Origin: Acidimicrobiia bacterium
GTDB taxonomy: Bacteria; Actinomycetota; Acidimicrobiia; Actinomarinales; Actinomarinaceae
Reading direction: 5' to 3'
Assembly (NCBI GenBank): GCA_028376655.1
Contig: JAONAZ010000003.1
Location: forward strand, 18,109 to 82,108
Length of the DNA: 64,000 nucleotides
The position numbers were made by a program, and so were the translations under genes. The notes beneath the pieces were generated by a model that did not search any database, was not told the DNA's origin, and was given only the letters and a program-made list of their open reading frames with translations. Shown here piece after piece: positions 158 through 52,866 of this stretch. Within the stretch, counting starts at the first letter, position 1; the number at the start of each line of letters is the position of its first letter.

Positions 158-892
158 TTAAAATATACTTCTGTATATAACTATCAAGCCAGAAATTATT
201 GAAAAATAAGTTACCATTTCCGCAATTAATTTATCAGAAACCATAGAAAAAAGTGAAGTTGAAAATCGTATACCTAATAAAACTGGAATGATTAAATATA
301 GAAACAAAATTATATGATCTATGTTTAAGTTTCCATTGAAGAATAACAATGAAAGAGTAATGACAATACCTAAAGTAAATACAGCATTTAAAGAGGGGCG
401 AAACTCATCACCCTTAGTACCTCGATACAAAATTGCAACAGGGGGACCGCCTATTGCAGCAATCATCCCAAAAATTCCTGAGAGTGTTCCAGCTATAAAA
501 GAATTTTTTGGGTTTCTTTTTACATTCCATCCAAAAAAAGATCCTAATCCAGCACTAAGTACTATCAAACCGACTGAAATGGATAAAGGTTTGGGGTCTA
601 AAGTGGTTAAAAAATATAAACCAATTGGTCCTCCTACTAATCGACCAATAATCAGAAACCTTACTGGCTCCCAGTTCACTTTTGATTTTTCTCGAAAGAA
701 AACTCTCAAAGCTAAAGGTAGGCCCAAGAGTGAAAGTAATTGAGGAATTAATAAAGGGTTTATTTGAATAATTATTGGTGAAGCTATTACCGCAAATCCG
801 AAGCCAAGAACTCCTTGAACCGCTGCTGAGAGGAATACAAGAAATCCAAGAAAGATTAATTCCTGTAGAGCTAGGTCAAAGGGGATGGTCAA
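158..892 (-). CDS. TauE/SafE (TSUP) family anion exporter membrane protein
   Basis: The 244 aa ORF is multi-TM with Gly-rich helices (GVLGFGFAVIASP, IGGPPVAILY) typical of the TauE/SafE family. It has a TTG start at 890-892 that overlaps the stop of the upstream Rdx-like gene. Confidence 0.72.
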   Translation of the reverse strand: MTIPFDLALQELIFLGFLVFLSAAVQGVLGFGFAVIASPIIIQINPLLIPQLLSLLGLPLALRVFFREKSKVNWEPVRFLIIGRLVGGPIGLYFLTTLDPKPLSISVGLIVLSAGLGSFFGWNVKRNPKNSFIAGTLSGIFGMIAAIGGPPVAILYRGTKGDEFRPSLNAVFTLGIVITLSLLFFNGNLNIDHIILFLYLIIPVLLGIRFSTSLFSMVSDKLIAEMVTYFSIISGLIVIYRSIF

Positions 893-1125
893 CTAAGTGC
901 TTTTTCAATAAGACTTAGAATCTCACCTTCTTCTGTGTGTCTTCCTGTCTCAAGTTTTGAATAAAGAAGAGTTTCATTTAAGTAGAATTCAAAAACCCCT
1001 CCTGATCCAGGAATTAAATTTATAGAACTAACTTTTTGACCGTATATTTCTAAAATGTCTTCTATCGTACTAACTGCACGAGGTGTGTAGTTTCAAACTA
1101 CACAAAATTCAAGTTTGATATCCAT
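889..1125 (-). CDS. Rdx/SelW-like thioredoxin-fold selenoprotein candidate (in-frame UGA = Sec)
   Basis: This gene is absent from the ORF track because of the TGA at 1093-1095. Reading from ATG 1125 to TGA 889-891 gives MDIKLEFCVV[U]NYTPRAVSTIEDILEIYGQKVSSINLIPGSGGVFEFYLNETLLYSKLETGRHTEEGEILSLIEKALS. That matches the Rdx family pattern (IEYCxxC..RA....L, PGxGGxFE, SK..GR.P), with UGA at the second redox position. Confidence 0.7.
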
Positions 1126-1162
1126 AACATAAATACTATCATAAAAAACTCAGAGGAGTTAC

Positions 1163-3064
1163 GTGTTTGACTATTCAAAAATAACAAAAAGTGATCTTAT
1201 TGAAGATGTTGAAAAAACACTTAAAACAAGCAGCGCCCTAATCGATGATATAAAAAATTTAAAACTTCCAACGCTAATGATGTTTGATCTGTTCGAAAGA
1301 CTTATTTCAGACCTATCTGGAAGAGTTGCTTTTTTAGCAGATGTTAGCGAATCAGAAGAAATAAGAAATTATGGTAACGAAGCGGAATCTCTTATAGGTA
1401 ACTACCTCCTTGAAGTAACTACTGATGTTGGCTTATATGATAAATTCAAAGTAATAAATTCTAACAACTTAGATGATGAGTCCAAAAAATACCGTGATGA
1501 ACTTGAAAAAGACTTTATTGATGCGGGTCATAATTTAATACGAGAACAAAAATTAAGACTTATTGAAATTGAAAAGAAATTAATTGATCTAGAGATTGGT
1601 TTTTCAAAAAATATAGCGAATGATAAATCAGAAGTTTACCTAACAGCCTCTGAGCTAACTGGTCTAAGTGAAGGTGAGTTGGGAAACTTAAAGTTAAAAT
1701 CTGATAAATATATAGTGACTATGGCTTACCCAGATGTAAATGCCGTTTTAGAAAATTGTACAAATCGAGATTCAAGAAAAGCTGTTTGGAAAGCATTTAA
1801 TAATAGAGCTGTGAAAACGAACTCCCCTATTCTCAAGGAAGCAGTTGTTCTTAGAAATGAAAAAGCAAAATTATTTGGATTCAATACTTGGGCTGAGTAC
1901 AGACTTAAATATCGAATGGCAAAAAATCCTAATAATGTAAATGTAATGTATGAAAGTTTAATTCCGATACTTCAAGAATCTGCAGAAATCGAGAAAATAG
2001 ATCTCTGTACGGACAATATTGAAGCATCTGAAGTAGCACCTTGGGATATTCGATATTTCATAACAAAAAAAAGAAATGAGCTCAGTAGTATCGACAATAG
2101 TGAGTTAAAAAAATATTTTCATATTCACGATGTAAAAAATGAAATGTTTTCTATTTGCGAAGATGTTTTTGATATTTCAATCAAAAAAGAAAAGTCGACG
2201 ACAGCTTGGCAAGAAGATGTAGAACTTTGGTCTATATGGAATGAAAATAACGAACAAATTGCTTACTTCTATCTAGACCTATATCCAAGAGAAGGTAAAT
2301 ATACCCACGCTGCAGTGTTTGATATCTCACCCGGAAGTCAAGATGGTGAGTCATTACCCGTATGTTCCATGGTCACAAACTTTCCTAATCCAAACACAGG
2401 AGATGGACTAATGACATTTGACGAAGTAGAAACCCTTTTTCACGAATTTGGACACGTATTACATAATGGAATCGGAAAATCAACATTTGCCCGGTTTGTT
2501 GGGGCAAACGTTGAGTGGGATTTTGTGGAAGCTCCAAGTCAAATAATGGAACATTGGGTATGGAAAAGTGAATGCTTACAAAGATTTTCTAGACATGTAG
2601 ATACAGGAGAAGTATTAAATGATGAGTTGAGTAAAAAGCTTAATTCAACGAAAAATATAGGTATTAGTCTCTTAACTCTTCGCCAAGTGTCCTTTGGATT
2701 AGCAGATCAATATTTACATGGATCAGATTTTAAAGACAGTCTTGACGAAATCGAAAGAAGGTCACAAGAAGTCACAACAATTACTTATCCTCAAGATGTA
2801 AATCATCTAGGTGCATTTGGACACTTGTTGGGAGGTTACGATGCCGCGTATTATGGCTATCTATGGGCAGACATAATAGGAGATGATTTATTTAGTAGGT
2901 TTGAAAAAGAGGGAGTTCTCTCTAAAAGTGTTGGGGTGGAATATAAAGAGAAAATATTAGCAGTTGGTGGATCTAAAAATGCTGAAACAATGGTAGAAGA
3001 CTTTCTTGGCAGAAAGTGGAATGATCAAGCTTTTTTGAAACAAAAAAAATTAGGAGATTCTTGA
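1163..3064 (+). CDS. M3 family zinc metallopeptidase (oligopeptidase A / dipeptidyl carboxypeptidase-like)
   Basis: The ORF is 633 aa with a GTG start and contains the HEFGH zinc motif (LFHEFGHVLHNG). Its length and overall pattern fit thimet/Dcp family M3. Confidence 0.85.
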   Translation: MFDYSKITKSDLIEDVEKTLKTSSALIDDIKNLKLPTLMMFDLFERLISDLSGRVAFLADVSESEEIRNYGNEAESLIGNYLLEVTTDVGLYDKFKVINSNNLDDESKKYRDELEKDFIDAGHNLIREQKLRLIEIEKKLIDLEIGFSKNIANDKSEVYLTASELTGLSEGELGNLKLKSDKYIVTMAYPDVNAVLENCTNRDSRKAVWKAFNNRAVKTNSPILKEAVVLRNEKAKLFGFNTWAEYRLKYRMAKNPNNVNVMYESLIPILQESAEIEKIDLCTDNIEASEVAPWDIRYFITKKRNELSSIDNSELKKYFHIHDVKNEMFSICEDVFDISIKKEKSTTAWQEDVELWSIWNENNEQIAYFYLDLYPREGKYTHAAVFDISPGSQDGESLPVCSMVTNFPNPNTGDGLMTFDEVETLFHEFGHVLHNGIGKSTFARFVGANVEWDFVEAPSQIMEHWVWKSECLQRFSRHVDTGEVLNDELSKKLNSTKNIGISLLTLRQVSFGLADQYLHGSDFKDSLDEIERRSQEVTTITYPQDVNHLGAFGHLLGGYDAAYYGYLWADIIGDDLFSRFEKEGVLSKSVGVEYKEKILAVGGSKNAETMVEDFLGRKWNDQAFLKQKKLGDS

Positions 3065-3135: not shown

Positions 3136-3330
3136 ATGACTGACGGACTAAAAGCAAGTCAAATTAAAGGTGGAATAAGGCCTTCTAAAAGTTTTGACCA
3201 GGGCAGAGTGTGTAAGGATGAATCTTGCAGCACAAAACTAAGCATATATAACAAGAGAGATCATTGTTTTAATCATGCTCCTGTAAAGTATCCTCGAGTA
3301 AGAGGTCGTATTTTACAAGAGACTGCATAA
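3136..3330 (+). CDS. Small zinc-ribbon-like protein of unknown function
   Basis: The ORF is 64 aa with a good SD (AAGGAA) and the pattern C-x4-C-x17-C-x2-H (CKDESC...CFNH). I do not recognise a named family. Confidence 0.5.
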   Translation: MTDGLKASQIKGGIRPSKSFDQGRVCKDESCSTKLSIYNKRDHCFNHAPVKYPRVRGRILQETA

Positions 3331-3392
3331 ATTTTTAATAAACTACCAAATACAAATGAGATCTATAAAAAATATTATATTAATATAAACTT

Positions 3393-3596
3393 ATGGATTT
3401 AAAATTCACTGTTCCTGAAATAAGTTGTGGGCACTGTAAAGAAACAATTGAGAAAGCCCTCGACGTTACAGGCATATCAAATATTAATGTTGATATTGAT
3501 AGTAAGGCTGTTTCATTAAATATTTCAGAAGAAACTGAGATATCAACTATAGAGTCTTTGCTTGATGAACAGGGCTACTCTATTGTCAGAAATTAA
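3393..3596 (+). CDS. copZ: Heavy-metal-associated (HMA) copper chaperone CopZ-like
   Basis: The 67 aa ORF carries the metal-binding loop SCGHC in a ferredoxin-like HMA context and sits immediately upstream of a Cu P-type ATPase. Confidence 0.8.
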   Translation: MDLKFTVPEISCGHCKETIEKALDVTGISNINVDIDSKAVSLNISEETEISTIESLLDEQGYSIVRN

Positions 3597-5628
3597 AGAA
3601 ACCTTAACTCTCGATTTAGAGGGAATGACTTGTGCTGCATGTGCAGCAAGAATTGAAAGAGTTATTTCTAAAAATGAATATATTGAGTCTGTATCAGTAA
3701 ATTTTCCATTAAAAAAAGCAGTTGTTAGATATAAAACCGAACTCAACATTGATGAATTAATTAAAAAGATCGGCTCTATAGGTTATTCGGCTAACATCTC
3801 CTCTTCAGAGGTTGAATCTGCTCAAAACTATAAAAATATTTTCCTTGTCCCATTTTTATCTTTAGGTTTTTCTGCAGGCATCTCTCAAGGATTTAATACC
3901 AATAACTCATTGAGAGCATATGTATTAGGTTTCATAGTTATATTTGTGTTTGGAAGACGTTTTCATATTTCCGCAGCAAAGAAAATAGTACACTTTGAAT
4001 TTAATATGGACACCCTCATTTCCCTTGGTAGCTTAAGTTCGGTAGCAGTGTCTCTTCTCCCGTCTGCTAATAGTGATATGTTCCTTGATGCGGGAGCTTA
4101 TATAATTTCATTTGTATTGTTTGGCAAAGCAGTTGAAGAAGTTTCAATTCAAAGCTCTATAGATGTATCTGAAGCCATTAAAAATTCTAGACCTCAAAAT
4201 GCTAAATTATTGAATAATGGAAATATTGAAGTAAAGATGGTTTCAGATCTATCAGGGGGTGATCTTATTGGCGTTTCCCCAGGTGAAATCATTCCAATTG
4301 ATGGAGTTATTACTTCGGGGTCTTCTTCAACTAACGAAGACTTTCTTACCGGCGAGTCAATACCTGTAAATAAAAAAACTGGTGATAATGTATTGGCTGG
4401 GAGTATTAACTTAGATGGATATATAGAAGTTGAAGTTAAGGATGATGCAGCCTCAACATATGATTTTATAGAGAAACTTATTCTAGAAGCACAGTCAACC
4501 ACACCAGCCATTCAAAAAAATCTTGATAAAGTAACACAATTTTTTGTACCGGGAATACTTACTCTAAGTCTTTCTTCATTCGTATACAGATATTTTCTTT
4601 TAGGTAATGATTTAATAAGATCTCTTGAGGTTGCTATCTCAGTATTAGTGATTGCTTGTCCTTGTGCTCTCGGTTTAGCCACACCAATAGTATTGTATAA
4701 AGCTTCTACGTTGGGATACAGAGATGGATTTATTTTTAAAAATTTTGATAAATTACAAAACTTAAAACAACTTAATAAAATTATTTTTGATAAAACTGGC
4801 ACTCTCACGTCTGGTATTTTTAGTATAAAAAAAATTGATGTTGGCAACTCTAAGTTAACTGAAGACATAGTGTTGTCATACGCTGCTAGCTTGGAGGTGA
4901 AGTCAAATCATCCTGTGGCAAAAAGTCTACTTCTAGAGGCGGAAAAAAGAAACTTGGAGTTATTTTCTTCAAAAAATGTCAAAGAAGTCACCGGGTCTGG
5001 AATTCATGGATCAATACATGACACTGTCATTTCTGTTTTTAGAAAAAAAGATTTTGAGAATGTGCTCGAAATAACTATTGATGATGAGAAAGCTTATATT
5101 CACCTTCAAGAAGATATGACAGTAGATAAAAATCTAATTAATAAAACAAAAAAATATTATGATATTTCAATTTTATCAGGTGATAGTTCAGAGAAAGTTT
5201 CACTTTTAGCAGATGAATTAGGAATTGAAAATGCTTTTGGCGATCAAACCCCTGAGGACAAACTTGAATTTGTAAAAAATGTTCAAAAAACAGAGGGTGT
5301 TATTTTTATAGGGGATGGTGTAAATGACTCTCCTTCCTTGCAACAGGCAAATGTTTCTATTACAACCTCAATAAGTAGCCAAATTGCCCAAGCATCCAGT
5401 GATATCGTTATTCACGAAGGGGGAATTGAGAAAATCCTTAAAATTAGGAATCTAGCTTTAGTTAGTAGCAAACGAGTCTGGCAAAATCTATTTCTTGCAT
5501 TCATCTACAACACTCTGATGATACCAGTAGCTATTTCTGGAAACATATCACCAAAACTAGGAGCATTGGCAATGGCTGTATCTAGTATTTCAGTAGTTTT
5601 AAATTCTTCAAGAAAACTAGTTAAATAG
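3562..5628 (+). CDS. copA: Copper-translocating P1B-type ATPase
   Basis: The 688 aa ORF has an N-terminal HMA motif GMTCAAC, the CPC motif in TM6 (IACPCALGLATP), the phosphorylation site DKTGTLT and the hinge GDGVNDSP. The exact start is uncertain because it overlaps copZ. Confidence 0.9.
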   Translation: MMNRATLLSEIKETLTLDLEGMTCAACAARIERVISKNEYIESVSVNFPLKKAVVRYKTELNIDELIKKIGSIGYSANISSSEVESAQNYKNIFLVPFLSLGFSAGISQGFNTNNSLRAYVLGFIVIFVFGRRFHISAAKKIVHFEFNMDTLISLGSLSSVAVSLLPSANSDMFLDAGAYIISFVLFGKAVEEVSIQSSIDVSEAIKNSRPQNAKLLNNGNIEVKMVSDLSGGDLIGVSPGEIIPIDGVITSGSSSTNEDFLTGESIPVNKKTGDNVLAGSINLDGYIEVEVKDDAASTYDFIEKLILEAQSTTPAIQKNLDKVTQFFVPGILTLSLSSFVYRYFLLGNDLIRSLEVAISVLVIACPCALGLATPIVLYKASTLGYRDGFIFKNFDKLQNLKQLNKIIFDKTGTLTSGIFSIKKIDVGNSKLTEDIVLSYAASLEVKSNHPVAKSLLLEAEKRNLELFSSKNVKEVTGSGIHGSIHDTVISVFRKKDFENVLEITIDDEKAYIHLQEDMTVDKNLINKTKKYYDISILSGDSSEKVSLLADELGIENAFGDQTPEDKLEFVKNVQKTEGVIFIGDGVNDSPSLQQANVSITTSISSQIAQASSDIVIHEGGIEKILKIRNLALVSSKRVWQNLFLAFIYNTLMIPVAISGNISPKLGALAMAVSSISVVLNSSRKLVK

Positions 5629-19888: not shown

Positions 19889-19927
19889 TAAAAAGACTTA
19901 CTCTTTTTAACTACTAAAAAAACCAAG

Positions 19928-20094
<167 letters not shown>

Positions 20095-20101
20095 AGTCTT
20101 G

Positions 20102-20187
20102 CGGAGGGAGTGGGATTCGAACCCACGGTATGGAATACATACAATAGTTTTCAAGACTATCGCCTTCGTCCGCTCGGCCATCCCTCC
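20102..20187 (-). tRNA. tRNA-Ser (anticodon UGA)
   Basis: This is a class II tRNA with acceptor GGAGGGA/TCCCTCC, anticodon arm ATAGT-CTTGAAA-ACTAT and T-loop GGTTCGAATCC. Confidence 0.9.
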
Positions 20188-20209
20188 AAAAAGGTATAGT
20201 TCTTCTGCG

Positions 20210-20298
20210 CGGAGGGAGAGGGATTCGAACCCTCGAAGGGGATAAACCCTTACACGCTTTCCAAGCGTGCGCACTAGGCCAGACTATGCGATCCCTCC
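20210..20298 (-). tRNA. tRNA-Ser (anticodon GGA)
   Basis: This is a class II tRNA with anticodon arm CACGC-TTGGAAA-GCGTG. Its 5' half is identical to that of tRNA-Ser(CGA) at 20803. Confidence 0.9.
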
Positions 20299-20325
20299 AG
20301 TTGAAGACCTAAGTTCTCAGTTTAC

Positions 20326-20784
20326 TTATCTCTTACTTTCAAAGAAAGAGGATAATATAACTTCAGATTCATGTGGTAATATATTTTCCCTAATCTCAAC
20401 AAAGTGATTCAGCCTGGGGTCTTGGGGAATATTGTAAAGTGAGTAAGCTGCTCCCGCTTTTAAATTAGGTACTCCGTAAAGAAGTGTCTTTATTCTTGCA
20501 TTCACAATAGCCCCTGCACACATTGCATCAGGTTCAACGGTTACTGCAATCGTTGTATCTTCTAGTCTCCAAGTCTTAAAAATTTTAGATGCCTCTTGGA
20601 TTACAATAATTTCAGCATGTAAAACAGGGTTTTGGTCAATTTCTCTCATATTGTGAGCTGATGAAATTAAATTATCATCTTTATCAAATAAAGCAGCACC
20701 AATAGGTATCTCATCTAATGTAAGTGCTTTTTTAGCCTCCTTGAGAGCTACCTGCATTTTGTCAATATCTGATTTGTACTTCAT
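20326..20784 (-). CDS. tadA: tRNA-specific adenosine-34 deaminase
   Basis: The 152 aa ORF has the CDA-fold zinc motifs HAE (PVLHAEIIVIQ) and PDAMCAGA (PCxxC-like variant). Confidence 0.85.
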   Translation of the reverse strand: MKYKSDIDKMQVALKEAKKALTLDEIPIGAALFDKDDNLISSAHNMREIDQNPVLHAEIIVIQEASKIFKTWRLEDTTIAVTVEPDAMCAGAIVNARIKTLLYGVPNLKAGAAYSLYNIPQDPRLNHFVEIRENILPHESEVILSSFFESKR

Positions 20785-20802
20785 ATCTCTAAACTAATTA
20801 TA

Positions 20803-20891
20803 GGAGGGATCGCATAGTCTGGCCTAGTGCGCGACACTCGAAATGTCGTAAGTCTTTTTAGGCTCCGTGGGTTCGAATCCCACTCCCTCCG
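20803..20891 (+). tRNA. tRNA-Ser (anticodon CGA)
   Basis: This is a class II tRNA with anticodon arm CGACA-CTCGAAA-TGTCG and T-loop GGTTCGAATCC. Confidence 0.9.
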
Positions 20892-20936
20892 CTTTACATT
20901 AAATCTATAAAACATTGAAGACCCTAAAATTATCTA

Positions 20937-22733: not shown

Positions 22734-23768
22734 CTACTCCTCTGGAGGGATAAACCCGGATATTGTAAATAAGTTGTCTTCAAGTTCTTCTTCATTTTCA
22801 ATCTCTTCAATTTTAATAAACCATTCATACAAAATTCCTGATTCGAGTTCAATAGTATCAGTAAAGTAACTTTTACTTTCAAATGCTCCTATGGAACTTA
22901 TCTTAGCTCTTTTCTCAAAAACAGAATCACCGAACTCATCTGTCACTAATACTAATAAAATAATATCAAATTCTTCTACATTCCCCTCATTGGCAATAAC
23001 AACCTGGATTCCTATAGGCTCCTTGAGAAAGACTCTGTAGTTGTCTTCTGTTACTGCAATTGGGCTTGGTAAAAACTGTACTCCTGTGATTGCAACATCT
23101 CTTCTTAAGAAAAGTCCTTCGGATGAATCTCTAGCCTTTTTAACGATTAAATCCGCAAAATTAAAAGCGCTACCTTCTAAGCCAGTATATTTTACTGGAT
23201 AAAAAACTGGTAAAAATAAATTGTCTTCACGTGACCTCTGAGAAATTTTTTGAACAAATTCTTCATATGCTTTATCTCCAATTGATAAGTCAATAATACT
23301 TTGGGCAAGTGCTTCTTCTATTTTTAATGAATTAGGATTATCTATCAATGTAATTATTGATATCTGGAATGTTTCCAACCCCTTTAGCCATGAGGATGTT
23401 GCTATGTTTAATAATTCTTTTTCTGAACTAACAAAATCTCCTCCTATATTTTGAACTAAGTTAAAAGCTTCTTGCGAGTCTCTAACTAAATTTGATAAAG
23501 TTGTCTCAAAATCATTCCTATTTATTTCATCAAAACTTAATACCTTTTCAAACTCTTTTGATGATTCGTTGTGCAACAGTGATACTATCGAGGCTTCTTC
23601 TAAAAACTCGTTGAGGTCTGATGAATTACTGAAATTTTCATAATAATTGAAACCAAAAAGAGAAAGTAAAAATATCACGCCTATAAGCAATGATGTCCTA
23701 ATTGTTTTGTTAGCTCTATTCATTTTAATTTCTTCTTTATACAGTCTAAGAAAACAAATATATTTCAC
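22734..23768 (-). CDS. N-terminally membrane-anchored extracytoplasmic protein, unknown function
   Basis: The 344 aa ORF probably starts at the Met at 23723 (MNRANKTIRTSLLIGVIFLL) and has a single TM followed by a mixed alpha/beta acidic ectodomain. Confidence 0.45.
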   Translation of the reverse strand: MKYICFLRLYKEEIKMNRANKTIRTSLLIGVIFLLSLFGFNYYENFSNSSDLNEFLEEASIVSLLHNESSKEFEKVLSFDEINRNDFETTLSNLVRDSQEAFNLVQNIGGDFVSSEKELLNIATSSWLKGLETFQISIITLIDNPNSLKIEEALAQSIIDLSIGDKAYEEFVQKISQRSREDNLFLPVFYPVKYTGLEGSAFNFADLIVKKARDSSEGLFLRRDVAITGVQFLPSPIAVTEDNYRVFLKEPIGIQVVIANEGNVEEFDIILLVLVTDEFGDSVFEKRAKISSIGAFESKSYFTDTIELESGILYEWFIKIEEIENEEELEDNLFTISGFIPPEE

Positions 23769-27933: not shown

Positions 27934-27953
27934 ACTATAAGATTACCTTGTTG

Positions 27954-28026
27954 TGGAGATGATGGGACTTGAACCCACGACCCCCTGCTTGCAAAGCAGG
28001 TGCTCTTCCAGCTGAGCTACATCCCC
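27954..28026 (-). tRNA. tRNA-Ala (anticodon UGC)
   Basis: I read GGGGATGTAGCTCAGCTGG..., anticodon arm CCTGC-TTTGCAA-GCAGG and the G3:U70 identity pair in the acceptor. Confidence 0.9.
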
Positions 28027-28115
28027 TCGCAATTAATATTATGCCTCTGATTTCGATGTAAATGAAAAAATTTTATAAATATTTTTTAATTGTGACTATT
28101 GTAAATAAGACATAA

Positions 28116-28190
28116 GGGCCTATAGCTCAGCCTGGTTAGAGCGCATCCCTGATAAGGATGAGGTCGCTAGTTCAAATCTAGCTAGGCCCA
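28116..28190 (+). tRNA. tRNA-Ile (anticodon GAU)
   Basis: I read GGGCCTATAGCTCAGCCTGGTTAGAGC, anticodon arm CATCC-CTGATAA-GGATG and T-arm GCTAG-TTCAAAT-CTAGC. Confidence 0.9.
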
Positions 28191-28237
28191 CTAAAAAAAT
28201 ATTAATTTAAAAAAATCTATACAGCTAAAATGCCATA

Positions 28238-51728: not shown

Positions 51729-52691
51729 TTAAACTTTTTCTTTCTGGCTAGTTCTTGAGTACACAACTAAACCTATCAAGATAAACAGTACTAGATAGAG
51801 TATATTATTTTGAAAGACTGAAGAATTTTGTATCTCTTCAGAGTAAAGGTTTGAATAAATGATTCCTGGATCTTCTTGGGATTGTCCTATTTCAGATAAA
51901 GTATTTAACAAGTCAACTGTGCTGGCTCCCCAGTTGTTTGCTAAGTTTTCATCTAAAAAGAAGACATTTCCACTTTGTACCGCAGTAATCTCCCCCCAGC
52001 CAACTCTTGTAGAGAGGTCTTTATTCAAATAGTCAGAATGACCTACGACAATCAGATTTGGATTGGAAGCCAAAACCTCTTCTTCTGAAAACTCAGGATA
52101 TCCACTTCCAAATGGATCTTCTTTTAGATTAGCAACATTGTTTATTCCCAGAAGATTGTAGATTTCGCCTATAAAAGAATTCTCATTTATTGTGTATATT
52201 CCATAAGTAAATCCAATCTCATGGAAAACAGTTATGTTTTCTGATGAAAAGTTTTGTATAATCTCTTCAACATCTCTTTGCATCGCTGAAACGAGTTCTA
52301 ATGATTCATCAGATTTGTTTATTAATGTTCCAATTTCTTCGATTTGTGTATAGACATCTTCAAAATCTCTTGCGGGAGGTAGTAAAGCATAGTTTATTTC
52401 TAAACCTTCTAACCCTTCAATGATTCCATTAAAATCAAAAGCTACTACTACAAGGTCAGGATTCAACTCGATTAAATCTTCAGCAGTTACAGTAAATGCA
52501 TCTATTTTTTCAATAGGTAGTTCTGTTTCTGAAAATGAATCAACCCCGACTAAAAGACTCTCACCTCCTAGCGCTTGGATAACTTCTGTGTGTGTTGTTG
52601 ATAACGAAATAACTCTTTGTTCTATGCTCGACTCTTCAGAGCCTGTACACATCGTCATCAACGCGGCAAGAATTAGTATCTTATATTTCAT
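51729..52691 (-). CDS. BtuF/FhuD-type (Peripla_BP_2) substrate-binding lipoprotein, cobalamin-riboswitch controlled
   Basis: I set the start at the Met preceded by an AAGGA SD (MKYKILILAALMTMC lipobox). The protein has class III SBP blocks (ISLSTTHTEVIQALG, NPDLVVV, VFFLDENL) and an extra C-terminal TM (ILYLVLFILIGLVVY). Confidence 0.75.
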   Translation of the reverse strand: MKYKILILAALMTMCTGSEESSIEQRVISLSTTHTEVIQALGGESLLVGVDSFSETELPIEKIDAFTVTAEDLIELNPDLVVVAFDFNGIIEGLEGLEINYALLPPARDFEDVYTQIEEIGTLINKSDESLELVSAMQRDVEEIIQNFSSENITVFHEIGFTYGIYTINENSFIGEIYNLLGINNVANLKEDPFGSGYPEFSEEEVLASNPNLIVVGHSDYLNKDLSTRVGWGEITAVQSGNVFFLDENLANNWGASTVDLLNTLSEIGQSQEDPGIIYSNLYSEEIQNSSVFQNNILYLVLFILIGLVVYSRTSQKEKV

Positions 52692-52744
52692 AATTTCCTT
52701 TCTTACCACGAGATAAGATTGATACTCCATTCCTTCTCTCGAGG

Positions 52745-52850
52745 ATTGTTGTTTTAATAAAACTAAAAAGGCGACCTGACTTATCTTTCGAATTACAGTT
52801 GCGGGACAGTGTTAGAATTTTACTAACTTCGCTTTTTAACTTCTTTGTTT
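52745..52850 (-). promoter_or_regulatory. Cobalamin riboswitch (compact form)
   Basis: The - strand reads GCGAAGTTAGTAAAATTCTAACACTGTCCCGCAACTGTAA...AAGTCAGGTCGCC. This matches the conserved GGGAA-N-GGTGAAAATCC-N-CCCGCAACTGTAA core and a B12-box-like AAGYCAGG..CC. It sits in the 5' leader of the SBP gene. Confidence 0.7.
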
Positions 52851-52866
52851 AAAGTATGTTAGCAAA

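Follow-up and report, generated by a model that had tools for sequence, protein, structure and literature searches.

A predicted selenocysteine insertion hairpin behind the in-frame UGA codon of a SelW-like gene of Candidatus Actinomarina

Bacterial selenoproteins of the SelW-like (SELENOW-like) type, which carry a CxxU redox motif with U denoting selenocysteine (Sec), have been described from Sargasso Sea and GOS metagenomes. They form the commonest selenoprotein family in sea water and are found on the list of high-confidence prokaryotic selenoprotein families. Here we report on a member of this family, a small gene with one in-frame TGA codon on the minus strand (889-1125) of a stretch of 64,000 nucleotides (contig JAONAZ010000003.1; hereafter the window), which has a GC content of 33% and contains dnaA and gyrB. 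We consider it very likely that this is a genuine and functional gene of Candidatus Actinomarina and that its UGA codon is read as Sec by means of a downstream hairpin, the selenocysteine insertion sequence (SECIS). The gene resembles the marine SelW-like selenoproteins in family membership by hidden Markov model (HMM), in the position of the CxxU motif after the first strand, in small size and in marine habitat. We see no essential difference between them; what is specified here is the Actinomarina host, a fixed partner gene encoding a TauE/SafE (TSUP) membrane transporter and the exact SECIS. Several of the related loci are AACY (Sargasso/GOS) contigs, and a cluster of 81% identity carries the JGI name 'selenoprotein W-related protein'. 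Given the high-confidence listing, this cluster name and the Sargasso/GOS loci, both the gene family and the Sec mechanism are already known; the mechanism is the ordinary canonical bacterial one, and knowledge of selenocysteine decoding is unchanged by the present results.

Recently, a preprint on the genus ('Actinomarina, resolved', bioRxiv 10.64898/2026.04.03.716425) reported that selC, selA, selD and a divergent selB occur in each of the 84 complete Actinomarina genomes, and predicted about five selenoproteins per genome. The most widespread of these is described there as '78 aa ... uncharacterized' (deep-Sep, 59+35 genomes). This family and the gene reported here have the genus, the length (78 aa) and a single Sec in common, and matched by these features, not residue by residue, they are almost certainly the same. 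The preprint leaves the family unnamed; here it is assigned to the Rdx/SelW-like proteins and its SECIS is located. This family assignment is new; with it, the 'uncharacterized' selenoprotein that is most widespread in an abundant marine genus is recognised as SelW-like.

The SelW-like gene and its in-frame UGA codon

The minus strand at 889-1125 translates as MDIKLEFCVV*NYTPRAVSTIEDILEIYGQKVSSINLIPGSGGVFEFYLNETLLYSKLETGRHTEEGEILSLIEKALS*, i.e. 78 codons or 77 residues plus stop, with an internal TGA at 1093-1095 and a terminal TGA at 889-891. For HMM scoring, Cys was substituted for the internal stop. The resulting protein scored 62.7 bits against Pfam Rdx PF10262 (E 3.9e-17, cut-off 22.6) and 52.5 bits against NCBIfam TIGR02174 CXXU_selWTH (cut-off 34.2), above the threshold of both models, in agreement with an initial annotation of the window that had proposed an Rdx/SelW-type open reading frame (ORF) of 78 codons at this place. 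The top NCBIfam model was NF041051 SelTWH_Campy (Campylobacter-type SelT/SelW/SelH (seleno)protein), which matched over its full length with 73.2 bits. Since this score lies below the equivalog cut-off of 88 bits, the ORF appears to represent a subfamily related to NF041051 rather than that equivalog itself.

The redox motif C8-V-V-U11 is made up of an UGU codon for Cys (codon 8, 1102-1104), invariant in all aligned homologues, and of the UGA codon (codon 11, 1093-1095). FCVV-UGA-NYTPRA aligns with YCTQCNWLLRA of Atu0228 (2fa8), the UGA falling on the second Cys of CTQC, and FCVV[UGA]NY aligns with YCTQCQW of 2ojl; therefore the stop occupies the second redox position of the CxxC/CxxU motif, as had been claimed initially. 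The best sequence matches among solved structures were bacterial SelW-related proteins (E 3.6e-7 to 1e-4). An AlphaFold2 model built from 19 relatives, of moderate confidence (predicted local distance difference test, pLDDT, 69; predicted template modelling score, pTM, 0.58), shows a thioredoxin-like beta-alpha-beta-beta-beta-alpha fold (E2-8, H15-28, E34-40, E46-49, E52-56, H68-77), in which the CxxU motif directly follows the first beta strand (residues 2-8). When this model was compared with the PDB using Foldseek, the top 21 structures were all bacterial SelW-related proteins (template modelling, TM, scores 0.71-0.75), while MIEN1, thioredoxins and mouse SelW ranked lower. The solved Rdx proteins Atu0228 (2fa8), SAV_2001 (3dex), BpR68 (2ojl) and VcR75 (2p0g) carry CxxC where CxxU is aligned here, and the predicted fold superposes on structures of this type at TM 0.73-0.75. 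They differ from the present protein in having Cys instead of Sec, in being about 25 residues longer and in an identity of only 20-25%.

The site of the UGA is covered by 113 sequences, comprising the window, 106 Actinomarina-type loci and 6 Chloroflexi loci. The closest genomic loci derive from metagenome-assembled genomes (MAGs) and single-cell genomes of Candidatus Actinomarina / OCS155 marine Actinobacteria (73-94% protein identity), the remoter ones from MAGs of Anaerolineae (Chloroflexi; 46-52% identity). A TGA was present at the CxxU column in 33/33 genome loci (27 Actinomarina-type, 6 Chloroflexi) and, once 80 metagenome loci were added, in 113/113 sequences from two phyla. A Cys codon (TGT or TGC) at the second position of the motif was found in none of the 113. 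Moreover, the coding sequence on both sides of the UGA is conserved, and the frame is intact over 78 codons in all homologous loci. The mixed Actinomarina/Chloroflexi alignment, used to scan metagenomes, retrieved only Actinomarina-type loci and no intermediate lineages; in a catalogue search with the same alignment, only Actinomarina-type proteins were among the best 120 of 3630. A scan of the window for other TGA-interrupted ORFs gave none that was convincing besides the SelW-like gene. The initial annotation had favoured Sec recoding over a fresh pseudogene and had proposed an alignment of orthologues as a check. The invariant TGA column and the undisrupted frames bear out this preference, and they point to the UGA at 1093-1095 being a selenocysteine codon and not a sign of decay.

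The hairpin downstream of the UGA codon

Behind the UGA an 11-nt spacer (AACUACACACC; 1082-1092, minus strand), which is at the same time the 3' arm of a palindrome discussed below, is followed by the 17-nt hairpin UCGUGC-AGUUA-GUACGA at 1065-1081 (minus strand), the stem of which measures 6 bp and the loop 5 nt, with G-U at loop positions 2-3. The spacer length is constant across all Actinomarina-type sequences. Of the Chloroflexi sequences, one keeps the register of the hairpin; in the remaining ones it is shifted by about 4 nt and has the loop AGUGU or AGUUUG. On a gap-free alignment of the window and 33 loci, reaching from 15 nt upstream to 60 nt downstream of the UGA, we counted three candidate structures, namely this hairpin, the palindrome and a hairpin at 1092-1072 that had been suggested initially. 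The hairpin at 1065-1081 (columns 30-35/41-46) was paired in 95.8% of cells, and sliding its pairing partners brought pairing down to 20-52%. Its closing pair 30-46 is U-A (12), C-G (9), A-U (1) or G-C (1), with G-C or A-U in Chloroflexi and U-A or C-G inside Actinomarina; at 33-43 the pairs U-A, G-C and G-U are seen, at 34-42 either G-U or G-C. The covariation score of the hairpin was reached by 0/500 shuffles. On a rough tree built from the remainder of the gene, the closing pair switched from U-A to C-G once, with one reversal, inside Actinomarina, and at least four lineages acquired a change from G-U to G-C.

The hairpin region is constrained at synonymous sites as well. Among 24 distinct Actinomarina sequences, codons 16-20 (CGT GCA GTT AGT ACG) show zero synonymous entropy at CGT, GCA, GTT and ACG, and the only synonymous changes are two from AGT to AGC, by which pairing is kept. 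By comparison, the synonymous entropy at similar four- and six-fold degenerate codons in other parts of the gene is 1.2-1.8 bits. Two of the five codons are rare in the window, CGT making up 7% of Arg codons and ACG 6% of Thr codons, and the joint probability of CGT-GCA-GTT-AGT-ACG under the codon usage of the window is 1.7e-4. From the UGA onward, the hairpin is the minimum-free-energy (MFE) structure in both Actinomarina clades, with -6.6 kcal/mol for the 17-nt hairpin of the window and -8.2 kcal/mol in the C-G clade.

The bSECIS model for bacterial SECIS elements (PMC13188914) asks for a loop of 3-9 nt, an upper stem of 4-16 bp, a G in the first two loop positions, a distance of 16-37 nt between UGA and loop and an MFE at or below -7.5 kcal/mol. 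The hairpin at 1065-1081 has this geometry, with the 5-nt loop AGUUA, a G at position 2 followed by U, the 6-bp stem and 17 nt from the UGA to the loop. The element of E. coli fdhF was reportedly narrowed by Liu et al. 1998 to a 17-nt upper stem-loop located 11 nt after the UGA, in the loop of which G23 and U24 are said to contact SelB. Spacer and hairpin have the same lengths here (11 and 17 nt), and a G-U likewise lies in a small apical loop, at positions 22-23 from the UGA as compared to 23-24 in fdhF. The element differs from that of fdhF by the absence of a bulged stem U, by the loop AGUUA instead of GGUC and by a weaker, AU-richer stem (-6.6 kcal/mol). The cognate SelB of Actinomarina has been reported to be divergent, and its binding to the present hairpin is a prediction. 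We assign the SECIS to the hairpin at 1065-1081, which by its pattern of variation is the element under selection and which is typical for bacteria, not atypical as the initial annotation had suspected for its own candidates. This precise placement, together with the evidence from covariation and synonymous sites, is new. The Rfam models applied to the window at gathering thresholds detected no SECIS family, only tRNAs and an AdoCbl riboswitch, and Rfam SECIS models likewise failed on the Actinomarina genomes of the preprint (bioRxiv 10.64898/2026.04.03.716425). A covariance model seeded with the hairpin, of which 48 distinct sequences are available, could help to find further selenoprotein genes in marine Actinobacteria of high AT content, for which the Rfam models fail.

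Several points weigh against Sec decoding by means of this hairpin. Few independent events stand behind its covariation inside Actinomarina. At -6.6 kcal/mol for the 17-nt stretch, the hairpin of the window is marginal with respect to the published threshold of -7.5 kcal/mol, being slightly weaker, and its stability is ordinary when compared with shuffled sequence (z = -1.25). Concerning the Sec machinery, tRNA-Sec is absent among the seven tRNAs of the 64-kb window, and the ten ORFs of suitable size that were scanned for selA, selB and selD in the window all turned out to be other genes. At the level of the genome, the machinery is documented by one unreviewed preprint (bioRxiv 10.64898/2026.04.03.716425). 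Finally, Sec insertion is predicted from nucleotide sequence.

The palindrome and other readings of the UGA codon

The UGA codon is surrounded by a perfect 10+1+10 palindrome, TGTGTAGTTT-G-AAACTACACA, at 1084-1104 (minus strand; 100% complementary), which extends the palindrome of 1085-1103 in the initial annotation by one base pair at either end. As RNA it would form a 9-bp stem with the UGA as 3-nt loop (-9.4 kcal/mol). The codons UGU-GUA-GUU (Cys-Val-Val) are complementary, codon by codon, to ACA-UAC-AAC (Thr-Tyr-Asn). Given the peptide C-V-V-U-N-Y-T and the codon usage of the window, the chance of a 9-bp RNA stem with G-U pairs allowed is about 0.076, and that of a perfect Watson-Crick palindrome about 0.003. 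Across the alignment, 86% of the cells of the palindrome were paired, and one compensatory pair was seen. AAC is kept in 23/24 distinct sequences against a 72% preference for AAT, and in the genome loci UAC goes with GUN and UAU with AUN; these two observations give a hint of selection on the palindrome. On the other side, pair-breaking synonymous variants are common in sister clades (GUU/AUU, GUC, UGC, ACC; the locus L085 pairs AUU with UAC), and the energy of the hairpin, -9.4 kcal/mol in the window, is -2.9, -0.3 or 0 elsewhere and about 0 in most Chloroflexi orthologues, from which the palindrome is absent. It follows from these variants and from the loss of stability that the palindrome is not required for decoding. 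Because the Cys-Val-Val and Asn-Tyr-Thr codons are mutually complementary, the palindrome is probably for the main part a by-product of the codons for C-V-V-U-N-Y-T, lineage-specific and incidental, and not a recoding signal; this demotion, which we regard as likely, is likewise new. We also considered, and rejected, the palindrome as an insulator that protects the SECIS from the hairpin at 1092-1072: the SECIS is the MFE fold even without the 5' arm, and for the hairpin at 1092-1072 folding of the mRNA gives a pairing probability of zero.

Among the other readings, a secondary, lineage-specific role of the palindrome fares best, although we hold it to be unlikely. It would be compatible with Sec decoding by way of the hairpin at 1065-1081, the palindrome acting either as a 5'-proximal RNA hairpin, which stabilises the leaderless mRNA or sets the pace of ribosomes ahead of the UGA, or as a DNA operator between the divergent selenoprotein and M3 peptidase genes. 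The low chance of a perfect Watson-Crick palindrome given the peptide speaks for such a role, and so does its position: it occupies +22 to +42 if the transcript starts as presumed, and relative to a -35-like hexamer of the M3 gene it lies 11-31 bp upstream. The perfect palindrome is, however, not conserved beyond the closest clade, an imperfect one persists where the neighbour is not the M3 gene, and no candidate binding protein was identified.

That the palindrome or the hairpin at 1092-1072 is itself the SECIS, as the initial annotation had proposed, or that the recoding signal cannot do without one of them, is very improbable. The palindrome indeed forms a stable hairpin in the window, shows one compensatory change (GUA/UAC to AUA/UAU) and keeps AAC and UAC against the AT bias of the genome. 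Yet pair-breaking synonymous changes are frequent in sister clades, where the UGA is retained at hairpin energies of -2.9 to 0 kcal/mol, as it is in most Chloroflexi orthologues at an energy of 0. Moreover, a ribosome with the UGA in its A site encloses both arms of the palindrome. The palindrome around the UGA is real; as a SECIS it is not supported. Nor is the hairpin at 1092-1072, which is paired in 79% of cells, has a permanent A.C mismatch and is unpaired at one position in 23/24 distinct sequences.

A general reassignment of UGA to Trp (code 4) or Gly (code 25), which would make it an ordinary sense codon, is close to impossible. An AT-rich genome of 33% GC and the public catalogues, in which the TGA is translated as W, could suggest it. 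About 100 catalogue proteins read 'FCVVWNYTPRA...ALSW...', being code 4 calls with W at both TGAs, and the catalogue versions of the gene (P0001-P0134) exist only as code-4-style translations of 84-92 residues. These overrun the conserved C-terminus and the true stop into spurious, non-conserved tails, which marks the W at both positions as a gene-calling artefact and not a sign of reassignment. In the window, TGA ends 8/30 large ORFs and is thus the ordinary stop that the initial annotation had taken it to be; one of these ORFs is the M3 peptidase, the Pfam match of which reaches the end of the profile. In addition, the column is the catalytic Cys/Sec position in a family known to use Sec. 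As a consequence of the code 4 calls, the Sec position of the family looks like a conserved Trp in catalogues. Standard table-11 gene callers do not see this real gene, which is catalogued with a Trp mistranslation.

A fresh pseudogene or a TGA sequencing error in a formerly Cys-containing Rdx gene, which one in-frame stop in an otherwise intact ORF would suggest, can be dismissed, since TGA stands at this codon in 113/113 sequences, whether these derive from independent assemblies, single-cell genomes or metagenomes, TGT and TGC are absent, the frame is intact throughout and the TGA is unchanged in RNA contigs. With TGA invariant, no Cys codon at this position and TGA an ordinary stop, decay of the gene and general reassignment are excluded for practical purposes.

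Transcription, the TauE junction and other features of the window

A putative extended -10 promoter, TG-A-TAGTAT, is located at 1133-1141 (minus strand) and ends 8 nt before the ATG of the SelW-like gene, which implies a leaderless or nearly leaderless mRNA. In the upstream regions of the related loci a TGnTAnnnT or TATAGT element is conserved, ending 7-12 nt before the ATG; the start is ATG in 105/106 loci, and a Shine-Dalgarno-like motif was found in 0/106 upstream regions. The SelW-like mRNA is thus likely to be leaderless or nearly so. The gene is represented in marine metatranscriptomes by contigs in which the TGA is unchanged. Two of these extend across the junction into the TauE gene, and one RNA contig of 151 nt ends exactly at 1125; these are contigs, not reads, and DNA carry-over is possible. 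In many of the 58 ORFs of the window a TAnnnT-like hexamer directly precedes the ATG, suggesting that leaderless translation is common in this genome.

Downstream, the SelW-like gene is joined to the gene of a TauE/SafE (TSUP) membrane transporter (158-892, minus strand; Pfam PF01925, 77.1 bits), the protein sequence of which is free of cysteine. At the TTGA of 889-892 (minus strand) the TGA stop of the SelW-like gene overlaps the TTG start of TauE, as stated in the initial annotation, and this junction is conserved in 107/107 Actinomarina-type loci. The last sense codon before it varies (AGT, GAT, GGT) and always ends in T; in the window, TAG stands immediately upstream of the TTG in the frame of TauE. 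On the other side lies the divergent peptidase M3 gene (1163-3064, plus strand). Both flanking genes are confirmed by their Pfam matches. The M3 gene is the upstream neighbour in only 63/107 Actinomarina-type loci, and a relative of TauE was found in none of the six Chloroflexi loci. The best sigma-70-like promoter for the M3 gene is at 1115-1142 (plus strand; TTGATA-16-TATCAT, 10/12), its -35 hexamer lying inside the first codons of the selenoprotein gene, and the two divergent genes share an intergenic region of 37 bp. In four of these Chloroflexi loci, L029, L030, L032 and L033 (about 3230-4700), a trpS-like gene (GARPTGRQHLGNYLG motif) and then a dtd-like gene, both recognised by eye from N-terminal motifs, come after the SelW-like gene.

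The preprint (bioRxiv 10.64898/2026.04.03.716425) finds no universal gene adjacency across the 84 complete Actinomarina genomes, a result obtained with a cluster-based measure and with a gene caller that would miss the SelW-like gene. Against this lack of universal adjacency the invariant pair of SelW-like gene and TauE stands out, and the two genes are probably coupled in translation. A Shine-Dalgarno-like motif was present upstream of the TauE TTG in 0/107 loci. Against coupling as an explanation, such a motif occurs in only 14/58 ORFs of the window anyway, counted at starts that are the longest possible ones and uncurated, and overlaps of 4 nt are common in this compact genome; coupling is for these reasons plausible and by itself nothing special. 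It should also be held against both coupling and the leaderless start that they are deduced from sequence patterns, in a genome in which Shine-Dalgarno-like motifs are scarce. Together with the likely leaderless start, the invariant TTGA link is a new element of our description, and the operon link to TauE is its single modest fresh lead, a small testable clue to the function of bacterial Rdx/SelW proteins. In the literature we found nothing relevant on a link between TauE and selenoproteins. A role of TauE as a DsbD/CcdA-like conduit for thiol electrons, fed by the CxxU protein, was considered and rejected, TauE having no cysteine.

K07090 is presumably the orthologue group of TauE/YfcA-type proteins. 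A third selenoprotein grouping of the preprint 'matches K07090', and its predictions were mapped to the same-strand gene of largest overlap (bioRxiv 10.64898/2026.04.03.716425). Because of this way of mapping and the 4-nt overlap between the SelW-like gene and TauE, the grouping may represent this very SelW-like gene, wrongly attributed to the adjacent TauE.

We propose the following course of expression. The extended -10-only promoter would give rise to a leaderless or nearly leaderless bicistronic mRNA, on which ribosomes would start at the 5' AUG of the SelW-like ORF. The UGA of codon 11 would be read as selenocysteine by SelB with Sec-tRNA(Sec), held on the 17-nt hairpin that starts 11 nt downstream. 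The predicted product is a thioredoxin-fold protein of 77 residues with a Cys8-x-x-Sec11 redox centre. The terminal UGA would bring about termination, because no hairpin stands behind it, and as it overlaps the UUG start of TauE/TSUP, translation of the transporter would probably be coupled.

A more far-reaching version, which we regard as doubtful, has the SelW-like ORF double as a selenium-sensing leader, so that synthesis of TauE is gated by the selenium supply. Ribosomes would then reach TauE mainly through the completed SelW-like ORF, because the UUG is weak, is without a Shine-Dalgarno motif and is embedded in the upstream stop, and the gate would arise because this ORF, on a leaderless mRNA, can be completed only if Sec is inserted at codon 11. 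If true, the conserved SelW-like/TSUP pair would mark TauE as a transporter of selenium or sulfur oxyanions working with the CxxU protein, and would provide a first functional handle on the bacterial Rdx family.

Further features of the window were noted in passing. Four tRNA-Ser genes (GCU, UGA, GGA, CGA) and one tRNA-Arg gene (ACG) lie within 1 kb at 19927-20892, and tRNA-Ala(UGC) and tRNA-Ile(GAU) are placed back to back on opposite strands at 27953-28191. The latter two are usually found as a pair in rRNA spacers; no rRNA genes were detected in the window. The AdoCbl riboswitch (52722-52858, minus strand; 57.9 bits) is located directly upstream of a gene for a BtuF-like ABC substrate-binding protein (51729-52730). 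An ORF of 344 residues at 22734-23768 (minus strand) is without an NCBIfam match at E<=1e-5. At 3393-5628 (plus strand), an ORF of 67 residues that by eye resembles heavy-metal-associated proteins (CGHC) overlaps the start of an ORF of 688 residues, which, likewise judged by eye from its GMTCAAC metal-binding and CPC motifs, looks like a copper P-type ATPase.

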